DNA from: Lytechinus pictus | Lineage: Eukaryota | Direction: 5' to 3' | Assembly (NCBI RefSeq): GCF_037042905.1 | Contig: NC_087245.1 | Location: 27,840,001-27,904,000 of the forward strand | Length of the DNA stretch: 64,000 nucleotides | In this document: positions 421 through 63,645 of the stretch, piece by piece | How positions within the stretch are numbered: the stretch's first letter is position 1 | Layout: each line of letters starts with the position of its first letter | The notes under the pieces: generated by a model | Told to the model about the DNA's origin: nothing | Seen by the model: only the letters and a program-made list of their open reading frames with translations | Database searches by the model: none | Made by a program: the position numbers and the translations under genes

Positions 421-607
421 ACAAAAAAGGAGTACACTGAATTAAAAAGAGAGATGAATATATGAATATACACCATATTTAGAAAAAATATTTTTTAGCA
501 AACATGCATTTTCGATTTTTTTTTTTACGATGGTGGCTTTCCATAGTTCTTGTTGGTTGGATTAATCGCAAACTCTTTGTAAGACAGGTCCTGTAGTATT
601 TGTATAC

Positions 608-1699
608 CTGCCACGGTGCCTCCTAGAAAAGCTCCAACTCCACCGGATATCTCAAGTAACCCGACGTAGACAGAAACATTTTTATCGGACACTCCACTCT
701 TTATGGCAATCATTCCCAGTACAGACCTACCTGCCACCGAAGCTCCCGAACAGAAAGCCGCAATTATCATGATGAAGAAATATCGAATGAAAACATTGCA
801 TAACAATGCAAGTATATTCAAAATAGTTACAAAGCAATATAGAGTGACAGGATCAACGAGTCTGTGAGTTAAGACACCAGACATGATACGTCCGCATAGG
901 TTGCCAACGGCAGCACCGAAGGTTATGAAGATTGTGTTTTTGACTGAAAGTCCTCTCTGGAGGCAGTATGGCACCAGGAAAGTATGCCAACCAATGTATA
1001 CAAACTCATGAAATGCATAAGACAAAACAATGAAAATTGAAGCGGGATTTCTCCTAAATTCAGTGTGTTTTAACCATGACATTATCTTGTTTATTGTTTT
1101 GTCATGATTATTGACATTTTCCTCACAGTTCATTTGAGTGGGCTCTCCTTGAGAAGATGGATCCGTTTTAATTTTGTCTTGAGAATCTCGTCCACTGCAA
1201 CAGTTTGTGACGAGTTCACTTTGTTCGTTATCATCTGCATCTGAAGCGTTTCTGGTTTCATTTTTTAATTCGCCTTTGTAGCTGTAGGGAGACGCTAATT
1301 CAGATACCTTGGGGCATGATACATTATGATGTTGTAAAGTTTCTTTATCGGCGACGTTGAAGTCACGTTCACCACAGGGAAGATCTCCTTCAGATGGAAC
1401 GGAATCCGATGAGTTGGTTTCCGAACCCTCCATGTGCAATGATGCCACAGTACCAGGACGTTCTGCAGGTATCCTCACGGCCAGGACAAAAGGGACTATG
1501 TTAAACATGATTCCACTAAAGATCAGTAGAACTCCCCGCCAATCATATGCTACAAGGAGACCCTCCGCTAACATAGGGAAAAGACAGATACCGACAGGAT
1601 AGCCACACGTTGAAATGCTGAGTAAGAGGTTGAAATTCGTTCCAGCCAAATTACACAGTGTCATGAATGATACGATCCAAACGATGCTGTACCCGAGGC
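608..1699 (-). CDS. SLC16/MCT-like transporter, third (large) coding exon; last exon(s) lie left of the window
   Basis: Acceptor TCCTCAG|GCCTC, donor GGCAG|GTATAC; contains YDWRGVLLIFSGI, a long hydrophilic central loop and the C-terminal TM bundle (GNLCGRIMSG...GAFLGGTVAG) typical of SLC16. Confidence 0.88.
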
Positions 1700-2400
1700 C
1701 TGAGGATTGTGAACAACAACATCAAAAGAAAATGATAGTGAAAGTTTCAATTTACAAAATGTTCAACCTATTGCCTTGATAAAAATCACCATTTATGACG
1801 TCCCAAATCCAAAACATAAAATTCTAATAACTTTCTTAATCTTTATTGGACTTTCCTCACACCTTCACCAATATTATTCATTATTTTTCTGCTATTCTCT
1901 CTTCAGGGTGAACTTCCCTTTGATAAGGTATATTAAGACAGCAATATTTCCCACATATCCGTAGGATTTCATCATTTTTAATAGGCAACTTAAAATCACA
2001 TTAATACAGCAATCAATATTTCAATCGTGAATTTTGCTTAAAATTTTGAATGCTGTGTTATCTATGAATACGATTTTGATGATAATTGAAGATATTTTAT
2101 TTTATAATTTGCATAATTTGTTTTATATCCACGTTTTCAAAAGATTATATCGTGACCTGTGATAGCGTATACTCGTTTCACAAGGCACTTTTATTACCGA
2201 TAATCATGATCCTCTTTTTTGTTCCCATTTCGCCTCCATTACCAGTGGGAAAATGAGTTTTCTCTGAACAATGTCAACTATATAATCCCTTTTGATCCCA
2301 GTTTGGTATTTCTTTTTCCTATTCTTCTGAAGTTGTCGTTATTGATGAGCAGTGGCGGACCGTGACCTGGAGGAGACAAAACATTGGAGGGGCACTGTAT

Positions 2401-17514: not shown

Positions 17515-20500
17515 TTATATATATATAATGTTTTATTGTCCAACTTAATGGAAATTCATTTTGTTTACATGCAAACATACAAATTACAAATATGAATAAT
17601 CAAGGAGACAAAATTAATACAAAATACTGGCATGCACGTAGTACATTCGTTCTTATACATAAGACGATTAAGAGTGTAACGAGATAATTATTGAAAATAA
17701 GATCAACAGGTAGGCATACAGTATTCGGTGTAATTATTACCATCATTCTAAAACTGTTCAATGAGTAAAAGTATCAGGTCATTTTATTTTATTTATTTAT
17801 TTATTACTTGAAGCATATTTCACATATAAAAAAAATCCACAACTCTACATTGACCATGATTTCGATACTATTATTATTATTGTAATCATTATAGTTGCTG
17901 TTATTATCATTATTATCATTACTATTATTACTATTACTACTACTATCATTACTCTTTACTTTTGTGGCAGTTATTGCATTTAAGAGGAGACATAGATGGC
18001 AATATTGAAGAGTAAGTGTAATTCTGCAATAAGGTGACTTGTTTTCTATTCAATGGTTCAGAAGACGAATTGAGAAAGGAATAACAGAATTTCCGTAACG
18101 GCTTGTTCTTGCCTTAACTGATTTCCACCTTCTTCCACTACGAAGTAGTTTGTATTTCTTATTTAATGGATGGGAGTGATCACCGACTATTGCTTGGGCT
18201 TTGTCAACTACCTTTTCTTGACATATCCTATCCAAATCTACAACGCACTTCGTAATCCTACTAGCCCGTTTCACGACTCTGTACAATTTATCTATATCCT
18301 TCTGTCTGGCACTGTGATACCAGACAACACAGTCATGGGTGATGATACTCTGAATAACTGAAGTATAAAACAAATACAATATTCTCTCGTTTACATGAAA
18401 TTGTTTCATCTTCCGAAGGAAAAACAATCTGTGGTTGCACTTGAGTGTGGTAGCTTTAGTCTGCTCGGACCAATCAAGTTTGTCATCAACAATAGTGCCT
18501 AGATACCTATAACTATGGACAATTTCAATTGGATGACCATCGATGTGGATAGGGAATTCTACAGGATCACAAGATTTCTTCTTCCTGAAGTCAAAGATGA
18601 TTTCTTTAGTTTTGTTAGAATTCAACACCAGATGGTTTTCAGTGCACCACCTACCAAAAGAGGATATGCTCTCCCTATATTCTAACTCACTCTCTTTTAT
18701 CAGGCCTACAATGACAGTATCATCGGCATATTTCAAAATACGAACCGACGGAATATTGGAAATACAGTCATTAGTATATAATATATAGAGAACAGGTGAG
18801 AGAACACACCCCTGAGGAGACCCTGTGTTCGTTGTAAGTACGTTGGAGAGTACATCATTAACCTTAACCCTCTGGGTTCTACCATGTAAGAAGTCATAGA
18901 TCCATAGAACCAGTGACGGTTTCACATCCAAGAAGCTTAATTTTTCTATTAACTTATATGGCTGGATGGTATTAAATGCGGAGGAAAAATCCACAAATGT
19001 AGCTCTTGCATAACAACTAACAGAATCTAAATGCTGGTAGAGTGAATGGGTTAACATGAGTACTGCATCTATGACAGACCTCTTAGACTGGTATCCAAAT
19101 TGGTTTAGATCAATTTTGTGACGGATTGACACAAGTACTTTTTCCAAAATAATTCTTTCAAAACATTTCATGACAACAGGACTTAATGCTACTGGTCTAA
19201 GATCATTATTCAACCTAGGACGATTATTTTTAGGCACTGGTGTAATGACTGATGCTTTCCAGCATTTTGGTACGATATGCTCAATTATTGACCTTTGAAA
19301 TAACATACAGTACGGAGCAGTGAGTTCAGATGCGCATGTCCGTAGGACACGCCCACTAACACCATCGGGCCCAGTCGCTTTTCTCGGGTTGATCAACTTT
19401 AAACGTCTCCGAACTTCGTGCTCTTCAATGACAATTGGGTTGTCATCCGACGCGCGCAACCGTTCAACTTGCTCATCAGCGATATGACGGAAGTTTTCAT
19501 TCTCGAAACGGGCGAAGAATCCGTTTAATTCGTCAGCTCTTTGTTGTGGATTAGGTTCATTTGCAAACATGTTTTCTCTCCGACTACTCGAATAATCTGT
19601 CATGTGCTCTAGACATTTCCATGCATCTCGGGGATTATTTGTATGGAAGTTTTCTTCGAGCTTTTCACCATACTCTTTTTTTGCTTCACTGATTTTCCGT
19701 TTCAGCCTATTTGTCAAGTCTTTAACAAGTTCACTGTTCCTCAGATGAAATGCCCTTTTCCTTTCTTTCAAAATCAATTTCATTTCTTTCGTGAACCAAG
19801 GCTTATTGTTCGGATAAATAGTAACCAATTTAGACTGAATGTGAAGATTCTCACAGAAGATGACATAACTGTTAATTGTATCTGTGAGTTCATGTATGTC
19901 GTCGCAGGCACCATAAAACAGTTCCCAATCCGTAATATCAAATCCCGTCTGCAGTAACTCAACTGACGTATTGTTCCAAATCCAAACTTGAACGTTCCTT
20001 TTTTCGCACTGATTGGACTTAATCCGTTGTTTGTATTTTGGTAATAAGTGAACGGTGTGATGATCGGACGCTCCCAGTCCCGGTCTCACAAGAGATTTGT
20101 ACGCATTTGGTATCGAACTGTAACATCTGTCTAAAACATTTCTTCCCCGTGTAGCAAAATCAACTAACTGATGATATTGGGGCATGGTATCCTCTAATTC
20201 ACAATGGTTGAAGTCTCCCAAAATAATAACCGGGGAATCAGGGGATCGCGTTTCAAGTTCACTCACTTTATCTTCGATGATCTGAATAGCTGTTACTTTA
20301 TTTGCATCAGGGGGGATATACACCAACACAACATGAACTTGTGGAAATTCTCGAGGTAGATAGAATGGTCGAAAAGAGAGAGACATAAGTTCAATATCAG
20401 TACAGCATGTAGACGATCTTACAGTATAGTTGTTGCACCACTGTTTGTTTACAAATACACATATCCCACCTCCTCTCTTTTTGTTTGTTAATTCAAAAGA

Positions 20501-21090
20501 ACGATCAAGCCTTTCTACACCAAAACCGGCTATATCAATATTGTTGGAATGAATGTCATTATTAAGCCACGTTTCTGTTATACAAATCAAGCTAGAGTTT
20601 CTATATTCGTGATCATATCTGACGTTAGCACGAAGTTCGTCCATCTTATTTACAATCGATCTCACATTACTGAGGGTGATCGTTGGTAAAGGTGGACGAT
20701 GGCCCCTCATCCGTACCCTTTGTCTGACGCCTCCCCGTTTACCCCTACGATGTGAAGACGTCTGATTGGGTTGATCTCTTGTCGGGACCCAGTCGGGTAT
20801 ATTCGCTGGTCGAACCCTGGATAGCGGCTTGGTGGCAAGGTGAAGCATAAACTGGTGATCGTATCGAATTGTAGGTGTATTCGGTTCATAATTACATCGA
20901 CTTACTCGAAACGACGAAAAATACAACACGATGACAAATAACCAAGTGGAAGATACATGTCCAAGAAACATGGTGAAACACTCCAAATGTAAACAGCTAC
21001 TAACAGTGGCACAAAAAGTGAAATTTTAGATGAAAAATGACAGACAAATTTGCATGTAAACCGGTCGCTACTGAGCAGCGCCCTTAGAAG
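17515..21090 (-). mobile_element. Rex1/Babar-clade non-LTR retrotransposon, apparently full length
   Basis: Single APE-RT ORF; short 5' UTR; 3' UTR ending AATTTCCATTAAGTTGGACAATAAAAC-(AT)n. Ends are approximate and no clear TSD was found. Confidence 0.8.
18050..20971 (-). CDS. Intact APE endonuclease-reverse transcriptase (Rex1/Babar type), 973 aa from the first ATG
   Basis: RRGKRGG..PPLPTITLSNVRS, ITETWL, GDFN, SDH (APE); KATGPDG, DFSSAFNTI, GSPQGCVLSP, YADD (RT); HPL..LLRSGRR..RTSRYGNSVIPFSIRLLN C-terminus; ACCATG context at 20971; no stops. Confidence 0.92.
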   Translation of the reverse strand: MFLGHVSSTWLFVIVLYFSSFRVSRCNYEPNTPTIRYDHQFMLHLATKPLSRVRPANIPDWVPTRDQPNQTSSHRRGKRGGVRQRVRMRGHRPPLPTITLSNVRSIVNKMDELRANVRYDHEYRNSSLICITETWLNNDIHSNNIDIAGFGVERLDRSFELTNKKRGGGICVFVNKQWCNNYTVRSSTCCTDIELMSLSFRPFYLPREFPQVHVVLVYIPPDANKVTAIQIIEDKVSELETRSPDSPVIILGDFNHCELEDTMPQYHQLVDFATRGRNVLDRCYSSIPNAYKSLVRPGLGASDHHTVHLLPKYKQRIKSNQCEKRNVQVWIWNNTSVELLQTGFDITDWELFYGACDDIHELTDTINSYVIFCENLHIQSKLVTIYPNNKPWFTKEMKLILKERKRAFHLRNSELVKDLTNRLKRKISEAKKEYGEKLEENFHTNNPRDAWKCLEHMTDYSSSRRENMFANEPNPQQRADELNGFFARFENENFRHIADEQVERLRASDDNPIVIEEHEVRRRLKLINPRKATGPDGVSGRVLRTCASELTAPYCMLFQRSIIEHIVPKCWKASVITPVPKNNRPRLNNDLRPVALSPVVMKCFERIILEKVLVSIRHKIDLNQFGYQSKRSVIDAVLMLTHSLYQHLDSVSCYARATFVDFSSAFNTIQPYKLIEKLSFLDVKPSLVLWIYDFLHGRTQRVKVNDVLSNVLTTNTGSPQGCVLSPVLYILYTNDCISNIPSVRILKYADDTVIVGLIKESELEYRESISSFGRWCTENHLVLNSNKTKEIIFDFRKKKSCDPVEFPIHIDGHPIEIVHSYRYLGTIVDDKLDWSEQTKATTLKCNHRLFFLRKMKQFHVNERILYLFYTSVIQSIITHDCVVWYHSARQKDIDKLYRVVKRASRITKCVVDLDRICQEKVVDKAQAIVGDHSHPLNKKYKLLRSGRRWKSVKARTSRYGNSVIPFSIRLLNH

Positions 21091-52334: not shown

Positions 52335-53539
52335 GTAAGTCGTACGAACAGAGTCTAAAGGCAGGGGAGGCGCCACGAGGGAGAAAGGGAGGAGGAGGCA
52401 ACATACTTCTTTCTCAGTTGAATTGTAGGGCTAATTTACCCCCCCCCCCCCGTTCTCTCTCCTTTTTTTCTTTCACCAAATAAACATTCATAGGGCTACT
52501 GTCCCGCCCCATCTCGTTTCCGCCTCCCTGTCTCAAGTCAATTTTTTTTTCAAAGCATCCCTTCTGAATTCGGACTAACATCATCATGCGATAAACTCCA
52601 TTATTCTAGGATGATTGCATTTTAAATCCTTCTCAATGTTGGGGATTATGAGTATTAGATTGTATAAACATTTCAATACCTTAACCCCTTCTAAATGAGT
52701 TAGACATCATGTATATCCTGTTAAAGGAAATATGGGAAATGGATTTGCCCTTATCGGAATCAATATCACTTTATTTCTCCTCAAATTACTCTTTCAGCAT
52801 CCTGGTATTTCATCTTCATCAAGTTCAACTTATTTAGTTATTGGCACGATTGACACGTACAACTTTACTTTATTCCTTAACCGGGGAGTGGGGGCACTTA
52901 CATTGACGAGTGGATACCATGTTAAGACACATTTTGGTAACAGCACATTTTGGTAAATTTACCAATATGTGCAGGACATTGACTGCACATTTTGGTAACT
53001 TCTGGGATTATTCTCTAAGTTGTCTGTTCTCATTCATTGTATTAAAATATTAACAAAGATACCATGTAACTGCACATGGAGGGCATAACAGTTATAAAAC
53101 CACATCAGCTAAACACATTTATTTTACCATTAATTTTGTCTCATCTCGAGTTGGTCTAAGACCTACATGGTCTAATACCCAACCTCTGTCCAATTCCATT
53201 TCGTCCAATGTCCATATCGTATAATGCTGTTTAGTCCAATATCATTTTGTTCAATAGCCATTCGTGCAATAGACATTTACTCTAAGAGCCACTTCGTGTA
53301 AGAGCCATTTCGTCCAAAGCCACTTCGTCTAAGAGCGACTTCATGTAAATGCCACTTCGTTCAATAAACAATTTTTTTTCCAATTGCCATTTCATCCAAT
53401 AGCCAGTTGGGCCAAAAGCCACTTTGTCCAATAGCCATTTTGGTTTAATGACATTTGATCCAATTCGGTCCAACACCTACTTGGTCTTAGTGACAGCTGG
53501 TCCAATACCAATTTGGTCCCATGCCCACTTGGTCTAAGG

Positions 53540-53764
53540 CAGGGGCGCATCCAGGATTTTCCAACGGGGGAAGGCACATTTTTTTTCCCCGAGGAAAAAT
53601 TTGACAAGCAAAAAAAAAAAGTTTTCACTTTCAAAGGGAGGGGGGCACACACTGCTGTTTTTACGGCATTTTTACATTATAAATTTCAATTGTGCCTCTC
53701 AAGATGGGGGTGGGGCACGGACCGGCTTTGCCGCTCCCCCCCCCCCCGATCCGCCAGCGCAGTG
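53540..53764. mobile_element. hAT-type MITE (second copy at ~56645-56881)
   Basis: Starts CAGGGGCGCATCC, ends GATCCGCCAGCGCAGTG; 8-bp TSD GTCTAAGG. Confidence 0.7.
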
Positions 53765-53910
53765 GTCTAAGGTGTAAAAGTCTACGCAATCGCGTGGTAT
53801 TCATAGGTGTGAACGCCCCCAGCTCTTGCCCCCCCCCCACACACACACACATACGCACACATTCACTCTCTTTGTGAAAACTATTGACTTTCCCAATGTC
53901 AGATATACAA

Positions 53911-54962
53911 TGCATTTAGACAAATTCAGAATATATCGACTAAGCAATTTTATCGCACTTTTTTAAATATTAATAACTCCGAAACCTCCAAGGTGTTTAC
54001 TCGTTTTTTTAAATCAACTTTACAACATCGATAGGCAACAGACTTCCAAATTGTTCACTCTTCCATTACGAATCACTATTGACACCAGACTTCGAATCAC
54101 ACACTATAAAATTTTAAACAACAATACCTACAAATGAATGGCTCACAAAAATAGGAAAGAAAACCAATGCATTATGCTCTTTTTGCAATGCGACACCCGA
54201 GACTTTGGATCATTTGTTTTTTGCATGCCCTAAAATAGCATCCTTTTGGAATGCGTTGCGTTTGAGAGTGACTGATTTTAATCCTAATTATTTCCTTTCA
54301 CGAAATACTATTTTATTTGGATTACTAGAACCATTGAGTCAATCCACCTTAGCATTTAATTTTCTAATTTTACTTGGTAAACAATTCATTTTGCGATGTA
54401 AATACCAAGAGACTCTCCCTAGTTTGAAACAATTTAATTATTATCTTTTATCTTATAAAGTTACTGAGGAAATTATTGCAAAAAAGAAAAACAAACTCAA
54501 TAAACACAATGTAAAATGGCAAAACATAAACAATTTTTTTTCCATTGCATAAATTGTAACCACTGTAGATTAGTATTTTGTGTTAATCGTCTTTGTGAGT
54601 TTGTTTTATCTTCTGTTCATGTTGTAGTGGTGTTTTTTATGTCATACTTTCGGTCATGTTAATACATTAAAATGTCATATTTTTTGGGTTGCGCTATACC
54701 CCGGCGATGCCGCCAGGACGACAGTGAACCGCCGGGTATTACCGTACCCCTTTTTCTTTTTCGGTTTTAATGGATCGTCTTGTCGGCAGGACTAGGGTAC
54801 AAGTTACTTGTAAATTATTCTGAGTTCACAATTTTTTTAAAGGATATGTTGTATGTACTTATACACAGTTTGTATCAATGTTCTGTTTGAAGTGCAACCA
54901 TATGTTTTGTATACTTTGATTGTTTTTGTGACGAATAAAAACTGCAAAGATAAAAAAAATAA
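53911..54962 (+). mobile_element. 3' fragment of an L1/Tx1-clade LINE (copy 1)
   Basis: zf-RVT-type CSFCNATPETLDHLFFACPKIASFW..GKQFILRCK..KW, 3' UTR, AATAAA and A-rich tail. Confidence 0.75.
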
Positions 54963-57654
54963 GCAGCACCTCCTGAGAATGAGGTTGATGTGCTAGAGAT
55001 TTGACACAACTTTTTGTTGTAACTTTTTTCTGACCTAAATGAATTTCATTTAGTTGGAATAAATCATTTTTAGTCCTTTTCTACCTCATGAACAAAATTC
55101 CCTTTCATTATTGGAGTGAAACTTTTTTGCCGCTTTTTAACAAATTAGCATCCCATATCTCTTTTATTTTTTGCCTCTGCCATCTTTACATTTGCCATTT
55201 TATTTTTAACTCCGCCATTATTATACTGTTAGAAAATTTCTACTTAAAAATATCCCCAAAACTCCTGCGGCATGTCTTTTTTTTGTACCTATGTCATTAT
55301 TACCTTTGTCAATATTACCTCTGCCATTTTTACTTCTGCCACTTATACCTTTGCCATTTTATCTTTGCCATTTATACCTCTGCCATTTATACCTCTGCCA
55401 TTTTTACCTCTGCCATTTCACCTCTGCCATTTTTACCTTTGCCATTATTACCTCTGCTATTATACCTCTCTTCTCTTATTTTTACTTATGCCATTTTTAC
55501 CTTTGCCATTTTGGCTTTGCCATTTTTACCTCTGCCATTTTTACATCTGCCATTTTACCTTTGCGATTTTTACCTCTGCCATTTTTACCTCTCCCATTAT
55601 TACCATCGACAGTCAAGTCAATTTTTTTTCAAAGCATCCCTTCTGAATTCGGACTAACATCATCATGCGATAATTCTAGGATGATTGCCTTTTAAATCCT
55701 TCTCAATGTTGGAGATTATACGTATTAGATTGTATAAACATTTCAATACCTTAACCCCTTCTAAATGAGTTAGACATCATGTATATCATGTTAAAGGAAA
55801 TATGGGAAATGGATTTGCCCTTAACGGAATCAATATCACTTTATTTCTCATCAGCATCCTGGTATTTCATCTTCATCAAGTTCAACTTATTTAGTTATTG
55901 GCACGATTGACACGTACAACTTTACTTTATTCCTTAACCGGGGAGTGGGGGCACTTCCATTGCCGAGTGGATGCCATGTTATGGCACATTTTGGTAACTT
56001 ACCAAAATGAACAGTTAGCAAAATGTGCCGTAACTATAAATGTTAATACACATTTTGGTAAATTTACCAATATGTGCAGGACATTGACTGCACATTTTGG
56101 TAACTTCTGGGATTATTCTCTAAGTTGTCTGTTCTCATTCATTGTATTAAACTATTAACAAAGATACCATGTAACTGCACATGGAGGTCATTTCAGTTAT
56201 AAAACCACATCGGCTAAACACATTTAGTTTACCATTAATTTTGTCTCATCTCGAGTTGGTCTAAGACCTACATGGTCTAATACCCAACCTCTGTCCAATT
56301 CCATTTCGTCCAATGTCCATATCGTATAATGCTGTTTAGTCCAATATCATTTTGTTCAATAGCCATTCGTCCAATAGACATTTAGTCTAAGAACCACTTC
56401 GTGTAAGAGCCATTTCGTCCAAAGCCACTTCGTCTAAGAGCGACTTCATGTAAATGCCACTTCGTTCAATAAACAATTTTTTTTCCAAATGCCATTTCAT
56501 CCAATAGCCAGTTGGGCCAAAAGTCACTTTGTCCAATAGCCATTTTGGTTTAATGACATTTGATCCAATTCGGTCCAACACCTACTTGGTCTTACTGACA
56601 GTTGGTCCAATACCAATTTGGTCCCATGCCCACTTGGTCTAAGGCAGGGGCGCATCCAGGATTTTCCAACGGGGGAAGGCACATTTTTTTTCCCCCGAGG
56701 AAAAATTTGACAAGCAAAACAAAAAAGTCTTCACTTTCAAAGGGAGGGGGGGGGCACACACTGCTGTTTTTACGGCATTTTTACATTATAAATTTCAATT
56801 GTTTCTCTCAAGATGGGGGTGGGGCACGGACCGGCTTTGCCGCTCCCCCTCCCCCCCCCCCCCCGATCCGCCAGCGCAGTGGTCTAAGGTGTAAAAGTCT
56901 ACGCAATCGCGTGGTATTCATAGGTGTGAACGCCCCCGGCTCTTGCCCCCCCCCCCCACACACACACACATACGCACACATTCACTCTCTTTGTGAAAAC
57001 TATTGACTTTCCCAATGTCAGATATACAATGTACATTTATTTTATTTTCAGATCCTAAAATTGAAAATTCAATTTATTTCCATGTCCAAATTAACTGACA
57101 CCTTGCGCATGAGGGAGAGGAAGAGAAGGGGAGAGAAGAATATACAGATAATAATAACCCTGCAATATTCAAAACAAACGAGACCAAAAACTACAGCTCC
57201 ACAAAACAATTAATTATTAAATGAAAATTACTTGGCTTTTATTCAAATATCAGAGTCTTCAAATACATTCCTAATGAAATAAATCAAATCAGGACAAAAG
57301 AAATATGGAATATCCAATATTTGATTACATTCATTGGATAAATCTAAAAAAAATAAAAATAAAACGTAAAAGGATGGGAAAGCAAAGATATACATGGATT
57401 TTGTTTTGTTATTGTTCTTAAAAATTACCAGAGTTAAGCCTTGGGTAAGCAGATACGACTTACTTAAGTGTCAAATTCGCAAAAGCATGGGGATTGGTTT
57501 CACATTACTTACATATTACTTATTTTATATTCATGAGGATAATAAATTGGAGCACGGATACCAAAATCAGGTTAATAAAATCGATATTTGCATGTGTCTA
57601 AATAAGAGTTGTTCATTCTGTATTGTGTGTTTCATCTTTTTTACGGGGGGGCAT

Positions 57655-57930
57655 GGTTCGGTATAAAAAATGGCAGAGGTAATAATGGCAGAGGTAAACA
57701 GGGCAGAGGTAATAATGGCAGAGGTAAATATGGCAGGGGTGATAATGGCAGAGGAAAAAATGGCAGAGGTAATAACGGCGGAGGTGAAAATGGCAGAGGT
57801 AAATATAGCCATGATAGCAGAGGTACTAATGGGAGAGGTGAAAAAGGGAAGGGATTATAATGGGAGAGGTAAAAATGGGAAGGGGTTATAATGGGAGAGG
57901 TAAAAATGGCAGAAGTAAAAATGACAGTGG
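57655..57930 (+). repeat. 15-bp AATGGCAGAGGTA array (left-arm orientation)
   Basis: Same unit as 12180-12365. Confidence 0.85.
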
Positions 57931-59957
57931 TATGTATGGCCATTCTTAAACCCCCATACAATAATAAAAGCCCCCGCATGTACAAAGATTAAATAAGAGG
58001 TGCATGTCACAGTTTGGCATTTCATCATTTTAAGTCCTCATCGGTCTAACATGGCCCTGGAAATTTTCCTTGGGGTGCTGCTTGTATTATTTTCCATAGG
58101 CAGCACCCCCTGGAAATCTGGTAGGTATATGATGAATGACAGAAGTGTAATGAAAATGAAAGATGTTCTAGAGGACCCCCCCCCCTTAAGAATTTTCCTA
58201 CACAGTGCTTGAAATAGTGCTTCAATTCACCCTTTTCAGATCGAAATATAAAATATTGGTTTTCATAATAAAATATGTATTTAGAATGCCCTATTCTAGA
58301 TCTAAATCTAAACACACGCACGCATGTTTATTCAGATACGCAGTTTGTTTTTGTTTTTTTAATTTAAAACCTTAAATTAAATTTTCAGATCAAAATATGA
58401 AAAAAAATGTGCTTGCACTTCGCGCTCACATTATTAATGTAAGAAGATACGCATTACCCACCCTTTTCCTGAATTACAAAACATGAATGAGTAGGTCCTA
58501 AAGGAAAAGTTTACCCTGACAAAAAAATTCACCGTAAAAATTGCAGGAAAATAAAAAAATATTTCCGAAGGTTTTAGAAAAATTGATCAAAGAATTATAA
58601 AGTTATCATAATTTTATTATTTGATTTGTGACGTCATACGCATGCAGCATTCCTACATAGCGAATGGTAAAAATTAATGAAATGTCATTTTCTCAGAAAA
58701 TTAAATAGTTATGCAAATAAGCTACCGGGGCTTTGCCCCAGACCCCACGCAGTAGGGGCTCTTCATTTATAACCTTCAAATGGCTCTATAACGCCCCCCG
58801 TTAAATCACGTTAAATCACTGGCATACATGCGCGGAGGGGGGGGGGGGGGGGATCTTGGTTCCACACCCAAGAGGAAATAAAAGAAATTATAGGAGACAA
58901 CGTAAAATGAAATGAATGGAAACAATGAAATGTGTTATTTGCTGTATATAATGGACAAATCTATCACATAATTAGAATTTAATTTCAATAGACTTTTTCC
59001 AGCTCGCTTTGCACGCTGGCGACTTTTTATTTTTTTTCCCACATTGCTATGTTTTTCCCCCTCAAAATATTTGGTTCATTGCGCAACTGGGTTGAATAAA
59101 TGTGTTGTGTAAAAGCTATATTCTGTATAAGCCCGCGATTTGATTGAAATAGCGGCAATCTGCGAGGTTTAAATGGCTTTGATATCAAGATCATCCGATC
59201 ATGAATAGAAAAGAAAAAATAAGTCATCACGAACTATTAAAAATGGAATTGATGCATTGTATATTACCTAACATATGGGGCAACTGCTAGTTTATGACGT
59301 CACAAATCCAAAACTTAAAATTCTAATAACTTTCTTAATCTTTAACGGATTTTACTCAAACCTTTACCAATATTTTCATGATTTTTTCTGATATTTTTAC
59401 AACCAACTTTTCTTCAAGGTGAACATCCCCTTGAAGCCTCAATTTTGTTTCCGCGCTTCGCGCTCGCATCAATCGTGTAGTTATATATCTATCCTGTTCA
59501 TGATTAGAAAAGTGCTTAGAATATCCCGTTTTTAGATCTGAGATCTCAATTTTGCTTCCGCTCGCGCTTCGCGCTCGCATCCATTGCATAGTTATATACC
59601 TATCCTGTTCATGATTACAAAAAATGCTTAGAATGTCAAATTTTTATATCGGAATTTCAAAGTTTTCAGCTCGCGCTTGCATTAATTGATTGTTGAAATA
59701 TGAATCGTCTTCATTACATGGGTAACTGCAAAGAGTCGTCCCTTTTCGATCAGGCTAGAATGTATATTAAAAATATCTGCTCGCGTTGATCACGCTCGCA
59801 TTAATTATTTTTACATTCGCATTCTCTTTAGGATCACAAACATATTGCTCAAAATGTTAAATTTTCATGACAAAATACATAAAATCTCATTTTTTTTAGC
59901 TCCCACTATTTAATATTTATATTCTTTTATAAGAATAAAGCTAAGAAGTGACTGTCC

Positions 59958-60042
<85 letters not shown>

Positions 60043-60236
60043 AACTTTACACATTTGTATACTTTCTCCCATACGTGTACTGTATCAAAGCAATAGCTTT
60101 GATCCAGCTGAAGCATGGCGGCTTGTCATTGTTCGAAACCCACCTTCACCCGACAGGGGAAATTATAATTGGTATAGTGTCGAAAATCTGTCTATCTGAC
60201 GGTCAATCGGATCGGGGTCGCCCTAGCCACTAACCC

Positions 60237-60308
60237 GTCTCTGTGGTCTAGTGGTTAAGGCACCGGCGTTCAAAGCTGGGGGCCCGGGTTCGATTCCCGG
60301 CAGGGACA
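60237..60308 (+). tRNA. tRNA-like gene with anticodon TCA (opal-suppressor-like; Glu-like body; not tRNA-Sec architecture)
   Basis: Acceptor GTCTCTG/CAGGGAC-A; D arm GTCT-AGTGGTTA-AGGC; anticodon arm CCGGC-GT TCA AA-GCTGG; variable GGGC; T arm CCGGG-TTCGATT-CCCGG. Confidence 0.7.
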
Positions 60309-60314
60309 TTTTTT
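60309..60314 (+). terminator. RNA polymerase III terminator (T6)
   Basis: TTTTTT directly after the discriminator base. Confidence 0.65.
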
Positions 60315-60457
60315 CGGCATTACCAATTTTTCCAAAGGGTAGATAGCTCTGGGGAACCTTGATTTAAGCTACGCCTACCATTGTTCTCTTCATCCATTTC
60401 TTTACAATATTTAAATAAAAGAGTTGCCAAAGCTGTTGTACATGTATAACTTTACAC

Positions 60458-60510
<53 letters not shown>

Positions 60511-61099
60511 TATCACAATAATTATAAAGATAATAATAATAATAATTATAATAATAGTCATGGCTCTGCGGTCTAGGGCTTTTAAAAAAGAAATGAAAGG
60601 AAATATTTTTTTCATTCAATTTATCATAAGCAAAATGAAACTGCATAGTCCATCCGGTTATAACATTCCTTTTCGTCTGGCTGGTTCTTTTGATCTAAAG
60701 CTTTTCCAGGTTTACCGATAAAAAAGGAGAGACATGAGAGAGGTGGAAAGACAGAATGGATTCTGGGGCGGGGAAAAGAGGGGGAATTAGCTTAAAATGT
60801 TAACGAACGATTGCGGTCAAATATTTTGTCCTTATTTGTATGTAGTCTGTACTAGGCTGTACTTTTCTTTTTAAATATTTGAATAACAATAAACATGCAC
60901 TCCCAGGTTTGGCACTGAATTTAGAATTCATGAAAATCAATAATATTCTTGTTTTGCATGGTAAACCAATTTGGGGTCGATCGAGGGTCTGGTTCAGATT
61001 CTTTGTATAAAAGAAGGCCCCGGACCTTTACCACTGCATCCAATATGATATTGAATAAAAACGCATTGATGATCATAACCCTTGGAAGCGGGAGTGCTG

Positions 61100-62210
61100 T
61101 TGGGTATTGTGTACACCATAATCTTGTAAAAGAACCTGGGGATTTCCCTTCTCTTTTCTGTGAATCTGCATTTAGACAAATTCAGAATATATCGACTAAG
61201 CAATTTTATCGCACTTTTTTAAATATTAATAACTCCGAAACCTCCAAGGTGTTTACTCGTTTTTTTAAATCAAATTTACAACATCGATAGGCAACAGACT
61301 TCCAAATTGTTCACTCTTCCATTACGAATCACTATTGACACCAGACTTCGAATCACACACTAAAATTTTAAACAACTTAATACCTACAAATGAATGACTC
61401 ACAAAAATAGGAAAGAAAACCAATGCATTATGCTCTTTTTGCAATGCGACACCCGAGACTTTGGATCATTTGTTTTTTGCATGCCCTAAAATAGCATCCT
61501 TTTGGAATGCGTTGCGTTTGAGAGTGACTGATTTTAATCCTAATTATTTCCTTTCACGAAATACTATTTTATTTGGATTACTAGAACCATTAAGTCAATC
61601 CACCTTAGCATTTAATTTTCTAATTTTACTTGGTAAACAATTTATTTTGCGATGTAAATACCAAGAGACTCTCCCTAGTTTGAAACAATTTAATTATTAT
61701 TTTTTATCTTATAAAGTTACTGAGGAAATTATTGCAAAAAAGACAAACAAACTCAATAAACACAATGTAAAATGGCAAAACATAAACAATTTTTTTCCAT
61801 TGCATAAATTGTAACCACTGTAGATTAGTATTTTGTGTTAATCGTCTTTGTGAGTTTGTTTTATCTTCTGTTCATGTTGTAGTGGTGTTTTTTATGTCAT
61901 ACTTTCGGTCATGTTAATACATTAAAATGTCATATTTATTTGGTTGCGCTATACCCCGGCGATGCCGCCAGGACGACAGTGAACCGACGGGTATTACCGT
62001 ACCCCTTTTTCTTTTTCGGTTTTAATGGATCGTCGTGTCGATAGGGTACAAGTTACTTGTAAATTATTCTGAGTTCACAATTTTTTTAAAGGATATGTTG
62101 TATGTAATTATACACAGTTTTTGAATGTTCTGTTTGAAGTGCAACCATATGTTTTGTATACTTTGATTGTTTTTGTGACGAATAAAAACTGCAAAGATAA
62201 AAAAAATAAG
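61100..62210 (+). mobile_element. 3' fragment of an L1/Tx1-clade LINE (copy 2)
   Basis: Same sequence as copy 1 (ORF 61461-61814); 5' boundary approximate. Confidence 0.75.
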
Positions 62211-62409
62211 CAGCACCTCCTGAGAATGAGGTTGGTGTGCTAGAGATTTGACACAACTTTTTGTTGTAACTTTTTTCTGACCTAAATGAATTTCATTTAG
62301 TTGGAATAAATCATTTTTAGTCCTTTTCTACCTCATGAACAAAATTCCCTTTCATTATTGGAGTGAAACTTTTTTGCCGCTTTTTAACAAATCAGCATCC
62401 CATATCTCT

Positions 62410-63360
62410 TTTATTTTTTGCCTCTGCCATCTTTACATTTGCCATTTAATTTTAACTCCGCCATTATTATACTGTTAGAAAATTTCTACTTAAAAATATC
62501 CCCAAAACTCCTGCGGCATGTATTTTTTTTACCTATGTCATTATTACCTTTGTCAATATTACCTCTGCCATTTTTACTTCTGCCACTTATACCTTTGCCA
62601 TTTTATCTTTGCCATTTATACCTTTGCCATTTTTACCTCTGCCATTTTACCTTTGCCATTTTCACCTTTGCCATTTCACCTCTGCAATTTTTACCTTTGC
62701 CATTATTACCTCTGCTATTATACCTCTCTTCTCTTATTATTACTTATGCCATTTTTACCTTTGCCATTTTGGCTTTGCCATTTTTACCTCTGCCATTTTT
62801 ACATCTGCCATTTTACCTTTGCGATTTTTACCTCTGCCATTTTTACCTCTGCCATTATTACCTCTGTTATTTTTACTTATGCCATTATTACCTCTGCTAT
62901 TTTTACTTATGCCATTTTTACCTCTGCCATTATTACATTTGCTATTTTTACCTCTGCCATCTTTACCTATGCCATTTTTACTTCTGCCACTTATACCTTT
63001 GCCATTTTATCTTTGCCATTTATACCTCTGCCATTTTTACCTCTGCCATTTTACCTTTGCCATTTTCACCTTTGCCATTTCACCTCTGCAATTTTTACCT
63101 TTGCCATTATTACCTCTGCTATTATACCTCTCTTCTCTTATTTTTACTTATGCCATTTTTACCTTTGCCATTTTGGCTTTGCCATTTTTACCTCTGCCAT
63201 TTTTACATCTGCCATTTTTACCTTTGCCATTATTACCTCTGCTATTTTTACCTCTGCCATCTTTACCTCTGCCATTTTTACCTTTGCCAATTTACCGTTG
63301 CAATTTTTACCTCTGCCATCTTTACCTCTGCCATCTTTACCTCTGCCATTTTTACCTCTG
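62410..63360 (-). repeat. 15-bp TTTTTACCTCTGCCA array (right-arm orientation; shorter copy at 55170-55605)
   Basis: Dozens of degenerate units with an internal block duplication; explains the low-complexity LPLPF/CHFYL/TSAIF ORFs. Confidence 0.9.
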
Positions 63361-63645
63361 ACTTTGACTCTAACCCAATACCATAATTATAAATCTTTAC
63401 TCCATTACAACCGTAAAATGTGGTTTTGAAATTGTTACCATATGTGCATATTGCCGAAAATGTGCAGGCACATCACTTTTGGTAACAAAAAATCCTGCCA
63501 GGGGCCAGGCATAGGTGCACTTTCGGCACATTTTGGTAACATATTTGTTTTATCAATATGTGCAGTTACCAAAATGTACCGTAACATAGTGATGAGGAAC
63601 CAGATTAGCTCCTTTGCACAGCGCGGCGAACCGGGGGGGGGGGGG

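Follow-up and report, generated by a model that had tools for sequence, protein, structure and literature searches.

We found that the tRNA-like gene in a 64,000-nucleotide stretch of the Lytechinus pictus genome (the window) is one module of a 405-bp repeat, in keeping with the original prediction that it was transposon-borne. The repeat is very probably a non-autonomous, hammerhead-less retroelement with Penelope-like copying, and comparison of its copies places its tRNA gene under structural selection. Our reading of what the tRNA does is more tentative. It may be the unit's RNA-processing module and not a decoder, with tRNA splicing yielding a circular intermediate for a Penelope-type reverse transcriptase (RT); we regard this as plausible but somewhat short of probable. 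In the window, the unit is followed by 23 bp of the unit start, and the whole insertion is embedded in (TA)n:

59959 to 60033, no strand: left part of the (TA)n target tract
60034 to 60438, plus strand: full 405-bp unit of the non-autonomous repeat (lineage A, young subfamily), from genome matches and the tandem period
60462 to 60513, no strand: right part of the (TA)n target tract; a TA repeat follows the preferred ends in other copies

The tRNA module itself has the following parts, with tRNA positions in standard numbering throughout:

60237 to 60308, plus strand: tRNA-like gene, a 72-nt cloverleaf, from ARAGORN, Rfam and host-tRNA comparison
60244 to 60254, plus strand: A box of the tRNA-like gene
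60268 to 60271, plus strand: fixed loop motif G32-U33-U34-C35 (GTTC in 5 of 5 subfamily majorities), with a putative role in processing
60270 to 60272, plus strand: anticodon TCA of the tRNA-like gene
60287 to 60297, plus strand: B box of the tRNA-like gene
60309 to 60314, plus strand: T6 run resembling a Pol III terminator, present as T6 in 51 of 58 dispersed lineage A copies and 6 of 9 lineage B copies
60327 to 60331, plus strand: second T run (T5), 3' of the T6

All 21 stem pairs form in the window tRNA, three of them as G-U (U4.G69, U11.G24 and G29.U41), and the A box, the B box, the U33-UCA-A37 loop and the immediate T6 are as originally described. The loop reads G32-U33-U34-C35-A36-A37-A38. 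U4.G69 is nearly private to the window copy, the repeat family having A69. Rfam RF00005, the general tRNA model, is covered in full with 58.9 bits (E 3.5e-10), and another copy of the tRNA unit scores 65.3 bits. ARAGORN reports 60237-60308 as the sole tRNA of the window and calls it SeC, a name that comes from the anticodon alone. The hallmarks of tRNA-Sec are a long variable arm, an extended acceptor stem and G73. The window tRNA has a 4-nt variable loop, a 7-bp acceptor stem and discriminator A73, and the claim that it is not a tRNA-Sec therefore stands. It is not a SINE head either: in a tRNA-derived SINE the tRNA head lies at the 5' end and reads into the body, whereas this tRNA sits mid-unit and is followed by T6, and 44 of 115 distinct 5' ends of unit copies lie upstream of it. 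An abundant older SINE with a D-arm motif common to the element tRNA does start at its head and read into its body (loci L074, L075, L077-L080, L083, L085 and L087-L091).

We searched the L. pictus genome (812 Mb, 368 contigs) with the unit and obtained 145 matches and 1,296 candidates. Copies are present as single pieces, as head-to-tail runs with a period of 405-406 bp and as head-to-head inversions, and most are 97-99% identical. A 35-nt pattern that includes TCA had 1,780 exact genome matches and its reversed control had none; thus, TCA is the state of the family rather than a chance or private mutation. When the loop was left unspecified, the pattern had 1,764 matches, and TCA was present in 98 of the first 100 listed, 40 of which came from one array. 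A related pattern with two mismatches tolerated had 2,452 matches. Long head-to-tail arrays of a 406-bp tRNA unit are found on contig C28 within ~755-918 kb and on contig C2 at 8.866-8.884 Mb (together loci L107, L156-L172 and L237-L239). Two 10-kb samples of the C28 array contained 19 and 25 motif matches, and nearly all array units within 10-kb samples keep TCA and T6. Searches for relatives of the unit gave 0 matches in both metagenome contigs (two patterns) and viral contigs. Public sequencing runs with organism labels A-E contained at least half of the sampled words, and two public non-A runs yielded only near-identical pieces and no other lineage. In about a quarter of each of two RNA-seq runs, there were 2,031 and 1,468 unit reads. 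These had both mate directions at similar depth and came mostly from 90-99% copies, with only 9 and 19 at 99% or above. The signal looks like passive transcription; read ends are not piled at the tRNA, in a library type that can neither reveal a tRNA nor distinguish circles and genomic tandems.

A looser pattern (2,556 matches) led to locus L076, and a search with L076 recovered a second lineage, B (147 candidates, of which 40 were scored, and 34 copies aligned). The A and B majority sequences are identical at 62 of 72 tRNA positions but at only 118 of 216 and 91 of 159 flank positions (55-57%). Lineage B keeps UCA, G32, A73 and T6, and all 5 stem pairs that changed between the lineages still pair. 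Three did so by double change (U2-A71 to C-G, U6-A67 to C-G and C28-G42 to U-A); the others went from C27-G43 to U.G and from G29.U41 to G-C. Thus, the proposed check of stem covariation came out in favor of a fold maintained through compensatory change. In a simulation of 8 random stem changes (400,000 trials), full pairing survived in 0.13-2.3%. Among 39 distinct copies, 92.2% of stem cells pair, with 51 double changes, and 0 of 500 shuffles reach this value, a control that kinship inflates. T-run length is nearly constant among copies. Comparative evidence of this kind indicates that selection acts on the cloverleaf fold in the source lineages, whereas copies decay once inserted. When the window and the collected loci were scanned with a profile for a third lineage (554 hits), only one short candidate emerged, L099:92-192 (minus strand), an old fragment with the T arm, the T-run and a 3' block that may represent one.

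The sequence immediately upstream of the tRNA is tied to its fold:

60183 to 60236, plus strand: antisense leader, from the fold of 60180-60314 (z -4.80), with like geometry in lineage B

These ~50 nt are a degenerate inverted copy of the tRNA minus the anticodon arm. The leader pairs with the D arm, the T arm, the acceptor 3' strand and the T-run and skips the anticodon arm, and in the subfamily majority sequence 41 tRNA positions are paired with it. Beside the window value, the z score of the leader plus tRNA was -5.23 in another lineage A copy and -4.08 to -4.89 in three lineage B copies, against -0.78 and -0.33 for two host tRNAs with their own leaders. The leader rod lies below the enforced cloverleaf by 18 (A) and 23 (B) kcal/mol. 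In this masked fold, the acceptor, D and T pairs drop to 0, the anticodon stem stays and its arm is exposed at probability 0.77-1.0. The leader duplex has -48 to -54 kcal/mol in the element versus -12 to -26 for fifteen host leaders, and it reaches -35 or lower in 92 of 105 lineage A and 16 of 21 lineage B copies. The A and B leaders are identical at 31 of 49 positions. Pairing is common to both lineages at 35 positions; 10 of these differ between them and yet remain paired. Position 71 changes jointly with its cloverleaf partner and its leader partner. Leader pairing did not exceed a shuffle control, in which 372 of 500 shuffles were at or above the observed percentage, a consequence of the low variation on the tRNA side. 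Slid leaders gave 9-50% pairing versus 91.6% observed, in a register derived from these very sequences. For 16 decayed copies, RNAalifold predicted the acceptor stem instead of the leader rod. By the predicted folds, the leader masks the tRNA in a long RNA.

These comparisons bear on one explanation of the tRNA, that it is a neutral relic: a recently captured tRNA whose anticodon changed by chance and which is carried by a young repeat. The near identity of most copies and the free decay of individual copies after insertion would fit this. However, it does not explain why lineage B, with its diverged flanks, keeps every pair, A73 and T6, or why leader pairing is kept there even though the leaders themselves have diverged. 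The A/B comparison appears largely to refute a neutral relic, and we consider it very unlikely.

We then mapped insertion ends in copies with 88% or more identity to a natural tandem, which gave 98 distinct 3' ends and 115 distinct 5' ends. Two bins hold 63 of the 3' ends; they peak at unit positions 384 (17 ends) and 28 (30 ends), 49 nt apart. In the window these correspond to the following:

60410 to 60417, plus strand: first preferred 3' end (unit 377-384); 24 of 98 distinct 3' ends lie in unit 376-390
60418 to 60461, plus strand: tail of ~44-49 bp to the second preferred 3' end; 39 of 98 distinct 3' ends lie in unit 16-30
60439 to 60461, plus strand: 23-bp repeat of the unit start, within the tail

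A TA repeat follows the second end in 31 of 43 copies and the first end in 14 of 16. Inverted arms stop at the first 3' end and have no tail, so that the tail is present at one end only. The 115 distinct 5' ends are scattered along the unit (5' truncation), and partial tandems and inverted 5' copies are present among the insertions. A tail, inversion, partial tandems and a TA target are the Penelope-like signature in the available part of one report (PMC8557442), and the two preferred 3' ends match, by analogy, the two internal RT start sites described for PAc in the accessible text of another (PMC11167929). Adjacent units in four dispersed tandems are 0-3 changes apart and separate insertions are 2-30 apart, which fits circle copying and equally a homogeneous array or local duplication. 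There was no ribozyme family among the 10 Rfam matches up to E 10 on the unit dimer. The hammerhead core CTGANGA was absent from either strand of the lineage A majorities, and lineage B had one isolated match without a GAAA partner. These searches thus revealed neither a hammerhead nor another ribozyme in the unit.

The 5' ends also bear on how the template is made. We counted 4 at the tRNA start versus 4.5 expected and 4 at the tRNA end versus 3.1 expected, and this spread indicates a template that exceeds a Pol III tRNA transcript in length and remains uncut at the tRNA ends. Template ends defined by RNase P or Z were rejected, as there is no pile-up at the tRNA boundaries. More broadly, other host enzymes could process the RNA: RNase Z or P would cut the leader-free first tRNA of a dimer, or an anticodon nuclease would cut the exposed loop, and the released unit-length RNA would then be ligated or template-jumped. 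Such processing would draw on the conserved and compensated acceptor and T arm, on the exposed anticodon arm of the masked fold and on a leader able to hold both ends together. However, neither tRNA boundary has an excess of 5' ends, tRNA-less junctions were not found among the collected loci, T-run length hardly varies, and this explanation gives no reason for G32 and C35. We judge it improbable.

No autonomous partner was apparent by 3' similarity in Neptune- or Hydra-type fragments (L233, L234) or in recurrent flanks, the latter yielding only other TA-targeting repeats. L233:3236-4732 (minus strand; C2 8.21 Mb) is a 5'-truncated Neptune-type Penelope-like element with RT, a C-terminal GIY-YIG and a hammerhead-like motif at its 3' end, and it shares a TA tract with a copy of the tRNA unit. 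Its ORF has one in-frame TGA, at codon 176 of 499. This TGA is private, since a protein with 99% identity carries an ordinary residue at this codon, and L233 was rejected as a partner with a fixed UGA. L234:3180-4307 (minus strand; C15 5.87 Mb), near a lineage B copy, is the 3' portion of a Penelope-like element, presumably of Hydra type, and carries a hammerhead-like motif as well.

To place the tRNA among host genes, we fetched host Glu, Gly(TCC), Lys and Asn genes, so that the comparison is confined to these four isotypes. Host tRNA-Gly(TCC), a type that makes up 26 of the 44 matches of one search, differs from the element tRNA at 4 unpaired positions in each lineage, whereas host tRNA-Glu(TTC) (L081) differs at 7 and 9. 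Overall identity of the lineages is 49 and 53 of 72 to host Gly and 48 and 45 of 72 to host Glu. On sequence similarity, tRNA-Gly(UCC) is probably the ancestor, a better candidate than Glu. The register-shifted Glu(TTC) ancestor hinted at originally is probably wrong, being the poorer fit in unpaired positions and identity. Relative to host Gly, the element has G32 instead of C32, C3-G70 instead of G3-C70 and an altered D stem.

TCA is present in 17 of 21 lineage B copies, in 7 of 8 basal lineage A copies and in 57 of 64 lineage A copies among those collected without anticodon patterns. By these counts, TCA is the ancestral and dominant state of the element tRNA. The 29 matches without A36 (21 TCC, 4 TCT and 4 TCG) were collected on purpose, and their share among the collected loci is therefore inflated. 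The TCC copies form a subfamily with common diagnostic flank changes. A tree of 108 copies places them low in lineage A with weak support; the diagnostic columns instead make a TCA group basal. A separate TCT subfamily was rejected: a DNA search with a TCT copy gave mainly young copies, and the TCT copies are too few. All five subfamily majorities have GTTC at positions 32-35, whereas positions 36 and 37 are variable. G32 is present in 118 of 126 copies, and its fixation across all subfamilies makes it look like a feature rather than damage. Among variants of positions 32-35, U33A alone was shared by every unit of a multi-unit insertion; it is present throughout two insertions on different contigs (2 of 2 units in L013 and 4 of 4 in L240). 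A32 occurs in four loci, in no case in more than one unit. With no more than two deep lineages recovered, this pattern of fixed and free loop positions reflects few events.

The loop data weigh against the suggestion that the tRNA promotes UGA readthrough. As a functional opal suppressor, the free tRNA would be charged (with Gly or Trp) and would read UGA for a partner element or in host readthrough. This would agree with TCA being ancestral and dominant. A human tRNA-Gly given a UCA anticodon suppresses UGA strongly while barely affecting native stops, as reported in the accessible part of Lueck et al. 2019 (PMC6379413), and its loop differs from the element loop at position 32 only. In-frame UGA codons also occur in some Naiads that target (TA)n, according to the available text of PMC8557442. 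However, the Naiad UGAs are read as Sec via SECIS, which is beyond the reach of the element tRNA. In place of an invariant stop anticodon in a canonical loop, we found a variable position 36, G32 and a transposed U33A. G32, a purine at a position where purines would be expected to weaken decoding, and the reversed 3:70 pair both deviate from host Gly. The UCC subfamily was amplified and the U33A variant also spread; thus, decoding is not needed. The 1,780 TCA copies are in ~70-fold excess over the 26 host Gly(TCC)-type matches, the TGA of the neighboring Neptune-type ORF is private, and conservation of 6 of 7 loop bases at 56% background identity is not significant (~0.11, hand calculation). 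The literature, in the portions available, had no passage on the effect of G32 on suppression. Suppression as the function of the tRNA thus seems quite unlikely.

Our preferred model, in which the tRNA is an RNA-processing module, would work as follows. In a two-copy RNA, the tRNA mature domain would be assembled from the 5' half of copy n together with the 3' half of copy n+1, and one whole unit would be an intron between positions 37 and 38. Once the anticodon stems had swapped partners, G32-U33-U34-C35 of both copies would pair (G-C, U.U, U.U and C-G) with 3-nt bulges (36, 37 and 38) on each strand, giving a symmetric bulge-helix-bulge with G32-C35' as the anticodon-intron pair. Host TSEN would cut twice at 37/38 and RtcB would ligate, which would leave a tRNA(UCA) by-product and a scarless 405-nt circle. 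The leader in the circle would mask the tRNA from RNase P and Z. A Penelope-type RT-endonuclease, to go by the insertion pattern, would nick (TA)n, start at either internal site and copy round the circle. In this scheme UCA would be incidental, A36 being a bulge base, and the C32G change would have made a tRNA-Gly tandem spliceable; tRNA splicing would replace the hammerhead of retrozymes. The window copy could not make a circle because it holds one tRNA. We tentatively suggest a class of element with a tRNA-spliced, leader-shielded circle, each round of which would free one tRNA(UCA) and might give low-level UGA readthrough; we offer this class as a possibility.

Several properties of the unit dimer are in line with this model. 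In the minimum fold of a natural dimer, the acceptor 5' strand of copy n pairs with its 3' counterpart in copy n+1 (0.99); D(n) and T(n+1) persist, and the inner halves are paired with the leader. As modeled, this fold is a pre-tRNA with one unit as its intron. As far as geometry goes, each of the five subfamily majorities allows G32-C35' pairing with 36'-37'-38' bulged. In the parts of the literature available to us, the splice motif has an N32-N35 helix in which N32 pairs with the third-last intron base (PMC10275265); a G-C anticodon-intron pair works and C-C abolishes splicing, weak helix pairs are preferred and over-strong helices reduce splicing, and RtcB circularizes the intron (PMC6614914). 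The C32 of host Gly would give C-C at the anticodon-intron pair in a dimer. U33A turns the helix into a perfect GAUC palindrome, fully complementary. U33 is the usual base at its position and has a role in decoding. The spread of U33A and the non-spread of A32 agree, as a natural test read from sequence, with the splice model; the U33A evidence comes from two loci. The model would account for the fixed G32 and C35, the free positions 36 and 37, the leader that skips the anticodon, the scarless units and the absent hammerhead.

Other results temper the model. Relative to the minimum, the splice-ready conformer costs 7.8 kcal/mol in 3 natural dimers and 7.8-11.5 kcal/mol in 3 model dimers, and local anticodon hairpins win over the splice-ready fold (0.81-0.94); these energies ignore enzyme binding and tertiary contacts. 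The chimeric acceptor stem is not diagnostic, because it also forms in 20 of 20 leader-shuffled dimers. T6, and in lineage A also T5, should stop Pol III after the first copy, and a dimer therefore needs read-through or another promoter.

In another reading, the tRNA would be a promoter or passenger module as in Cassandra or Helenus. It would recruit Pol III and TFIIIC and give a short, stable, poorly decoding tRNA-like RNA; the RT templates would be long read-through RNAs from arrays or host genes, the leader would only ward off RNase P and Z, and there would be no circle or one formed some other way. The conserved A and B boxes and T6, the long arrays on C2 and C28 and the passive transcription in both directions are all compatible with it. 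There is precedent in the available text of Kojima 2024 (PMC10886601): the Pol III promoters of Helenus TRIMs are tRNA-like, and in Uromyces and Cronartium every predicted tRNA-Sup-CTA gene derives from Helenus. However, a promoter needs the boxes alone, which leaves the double-sided acceptor changes, the fixed unusual G32 and the exact skipping of the anticodon arm by the leader unexplained. A promoter or passenger role is rather unlikely in our estimation.

Among known systems, the non-LTR retrozymes of animals are likewise short non-coding tandem units, with a self-paired predicted circle (the circular tRNA unit has z -6.2) and probable mobilization by Penelope-like elements, according to the available parts of two reports (PMC7229834; bioRxiv 10.64898/2026.07.22.740005). 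They have a type I hammerhead per unit, whereas the tRNA unit carries a tRNA and an antisense leader. Abundant circular monomer RNA is a further hallmark of these retrozymes. "tRNA" and "urchin" had 0 matches in the main text of the second report (Li, Clavereau & Pollet 2026), the part available. In the portion of PMC7229834 drawn on here, plant retrozyme circles mask their own ribozyme with complementary sequence, comparable to the masking of the processing motif by the leader. The Penelope-like Naiad/Chlamys and MRC1 (PMC8557442) and PAc (PMC11167929) likewise have two 3' ends plus a tail, 5' truncation and inverted 5' pieces in the accessible text. Penelope-like elements also share partial tandems and the (TA)n target, and Naiads are likewise without a canonical hammerhead (PMC8557442, in part). 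The tRNA unit differs from Penelope-like derivatives in having no ORF and a tail of 44-49 bp rather than 30-40, the latter figure from the same partial source. Motifs of the tRNA unit had 0 matches in the portion of the PMC8557442 supplement available.

The proposed chemistry is like that of tricRNAs (Schmidt et al. 2019, PMC6614914, in part), with a bulge-helix-bulge-like motif, an N32 anticodon-intron pair, TSEN cuts at 37/38 and closure of the intron by RtcB. Unlike in tricRNA precursors, the "intron" here would comprise an entire mobile unit and restore the tRNA at its junction, and single copies have no intron. The TRIMp3 elements Helenus and Cassandra (PMC10886601, in part) are likewise non-autonomous, have an internal small-RNA gene and can inflate suppressor-tRNA counts. 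Unlike TRIMp3, the tRNA unit is without LTRs, a purine tract, a 4-5-bp target duplication or, apparently, a primer site and has a Penelope-like insertion pattern instead: its 5' ends are variable, its ends are embedded in TA, and its longest purine run is 8-9 nt. The UCA-edited tRNA-Gly shares a tRNA-Gly-type body, UCA and A73 with the element, which differs from it in G32, C3-G70 and the altered D stem (PMC6379413, in part). The portions of the literature available contained no description of a tRNA-bearing Penelope-type element.

If the splicing model is true, the family would be a selfish element exploiting host tRNA splicing, with a ribozyme-free route to retrotransposon circles. It would explain the tandem copies of a hammerhead-less Penelope-type passenger, and it would provide a small natural substrate for probing the Penelope mechanism and TSEN rules. 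Even without the model, the unit would be a natural two-state tRNA/anti-tRNA switch, and the family inflates the Sec and suppressor tRNA counts of this genome by about two thousand. Separately, contig C4 has a host tRNA-Lys cluster at 9.70-9.74 Mb (L033-L060), in which a TTA-anticodon variant, reported by ARAGORN as tRNA-Stop, occurs 8 times in overlapping loci.

We also observed several other features of the window. An open 991-codon LINE-type ORF with endonuclease and RT domains is at 18050-21025 (minus strand), and an exon of a major-facilitator transporter gene is at 525-1721 (minus strand). Two local duplications are present, 53911-55604 with 61167-62862 (97%) and 52533-53918 with 55613-57039 (92%). 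Inverted 15-bp minisatellite arrays at 57640-57950 and 62400-63400, ~5 kb apart, flank the tRNA unit.
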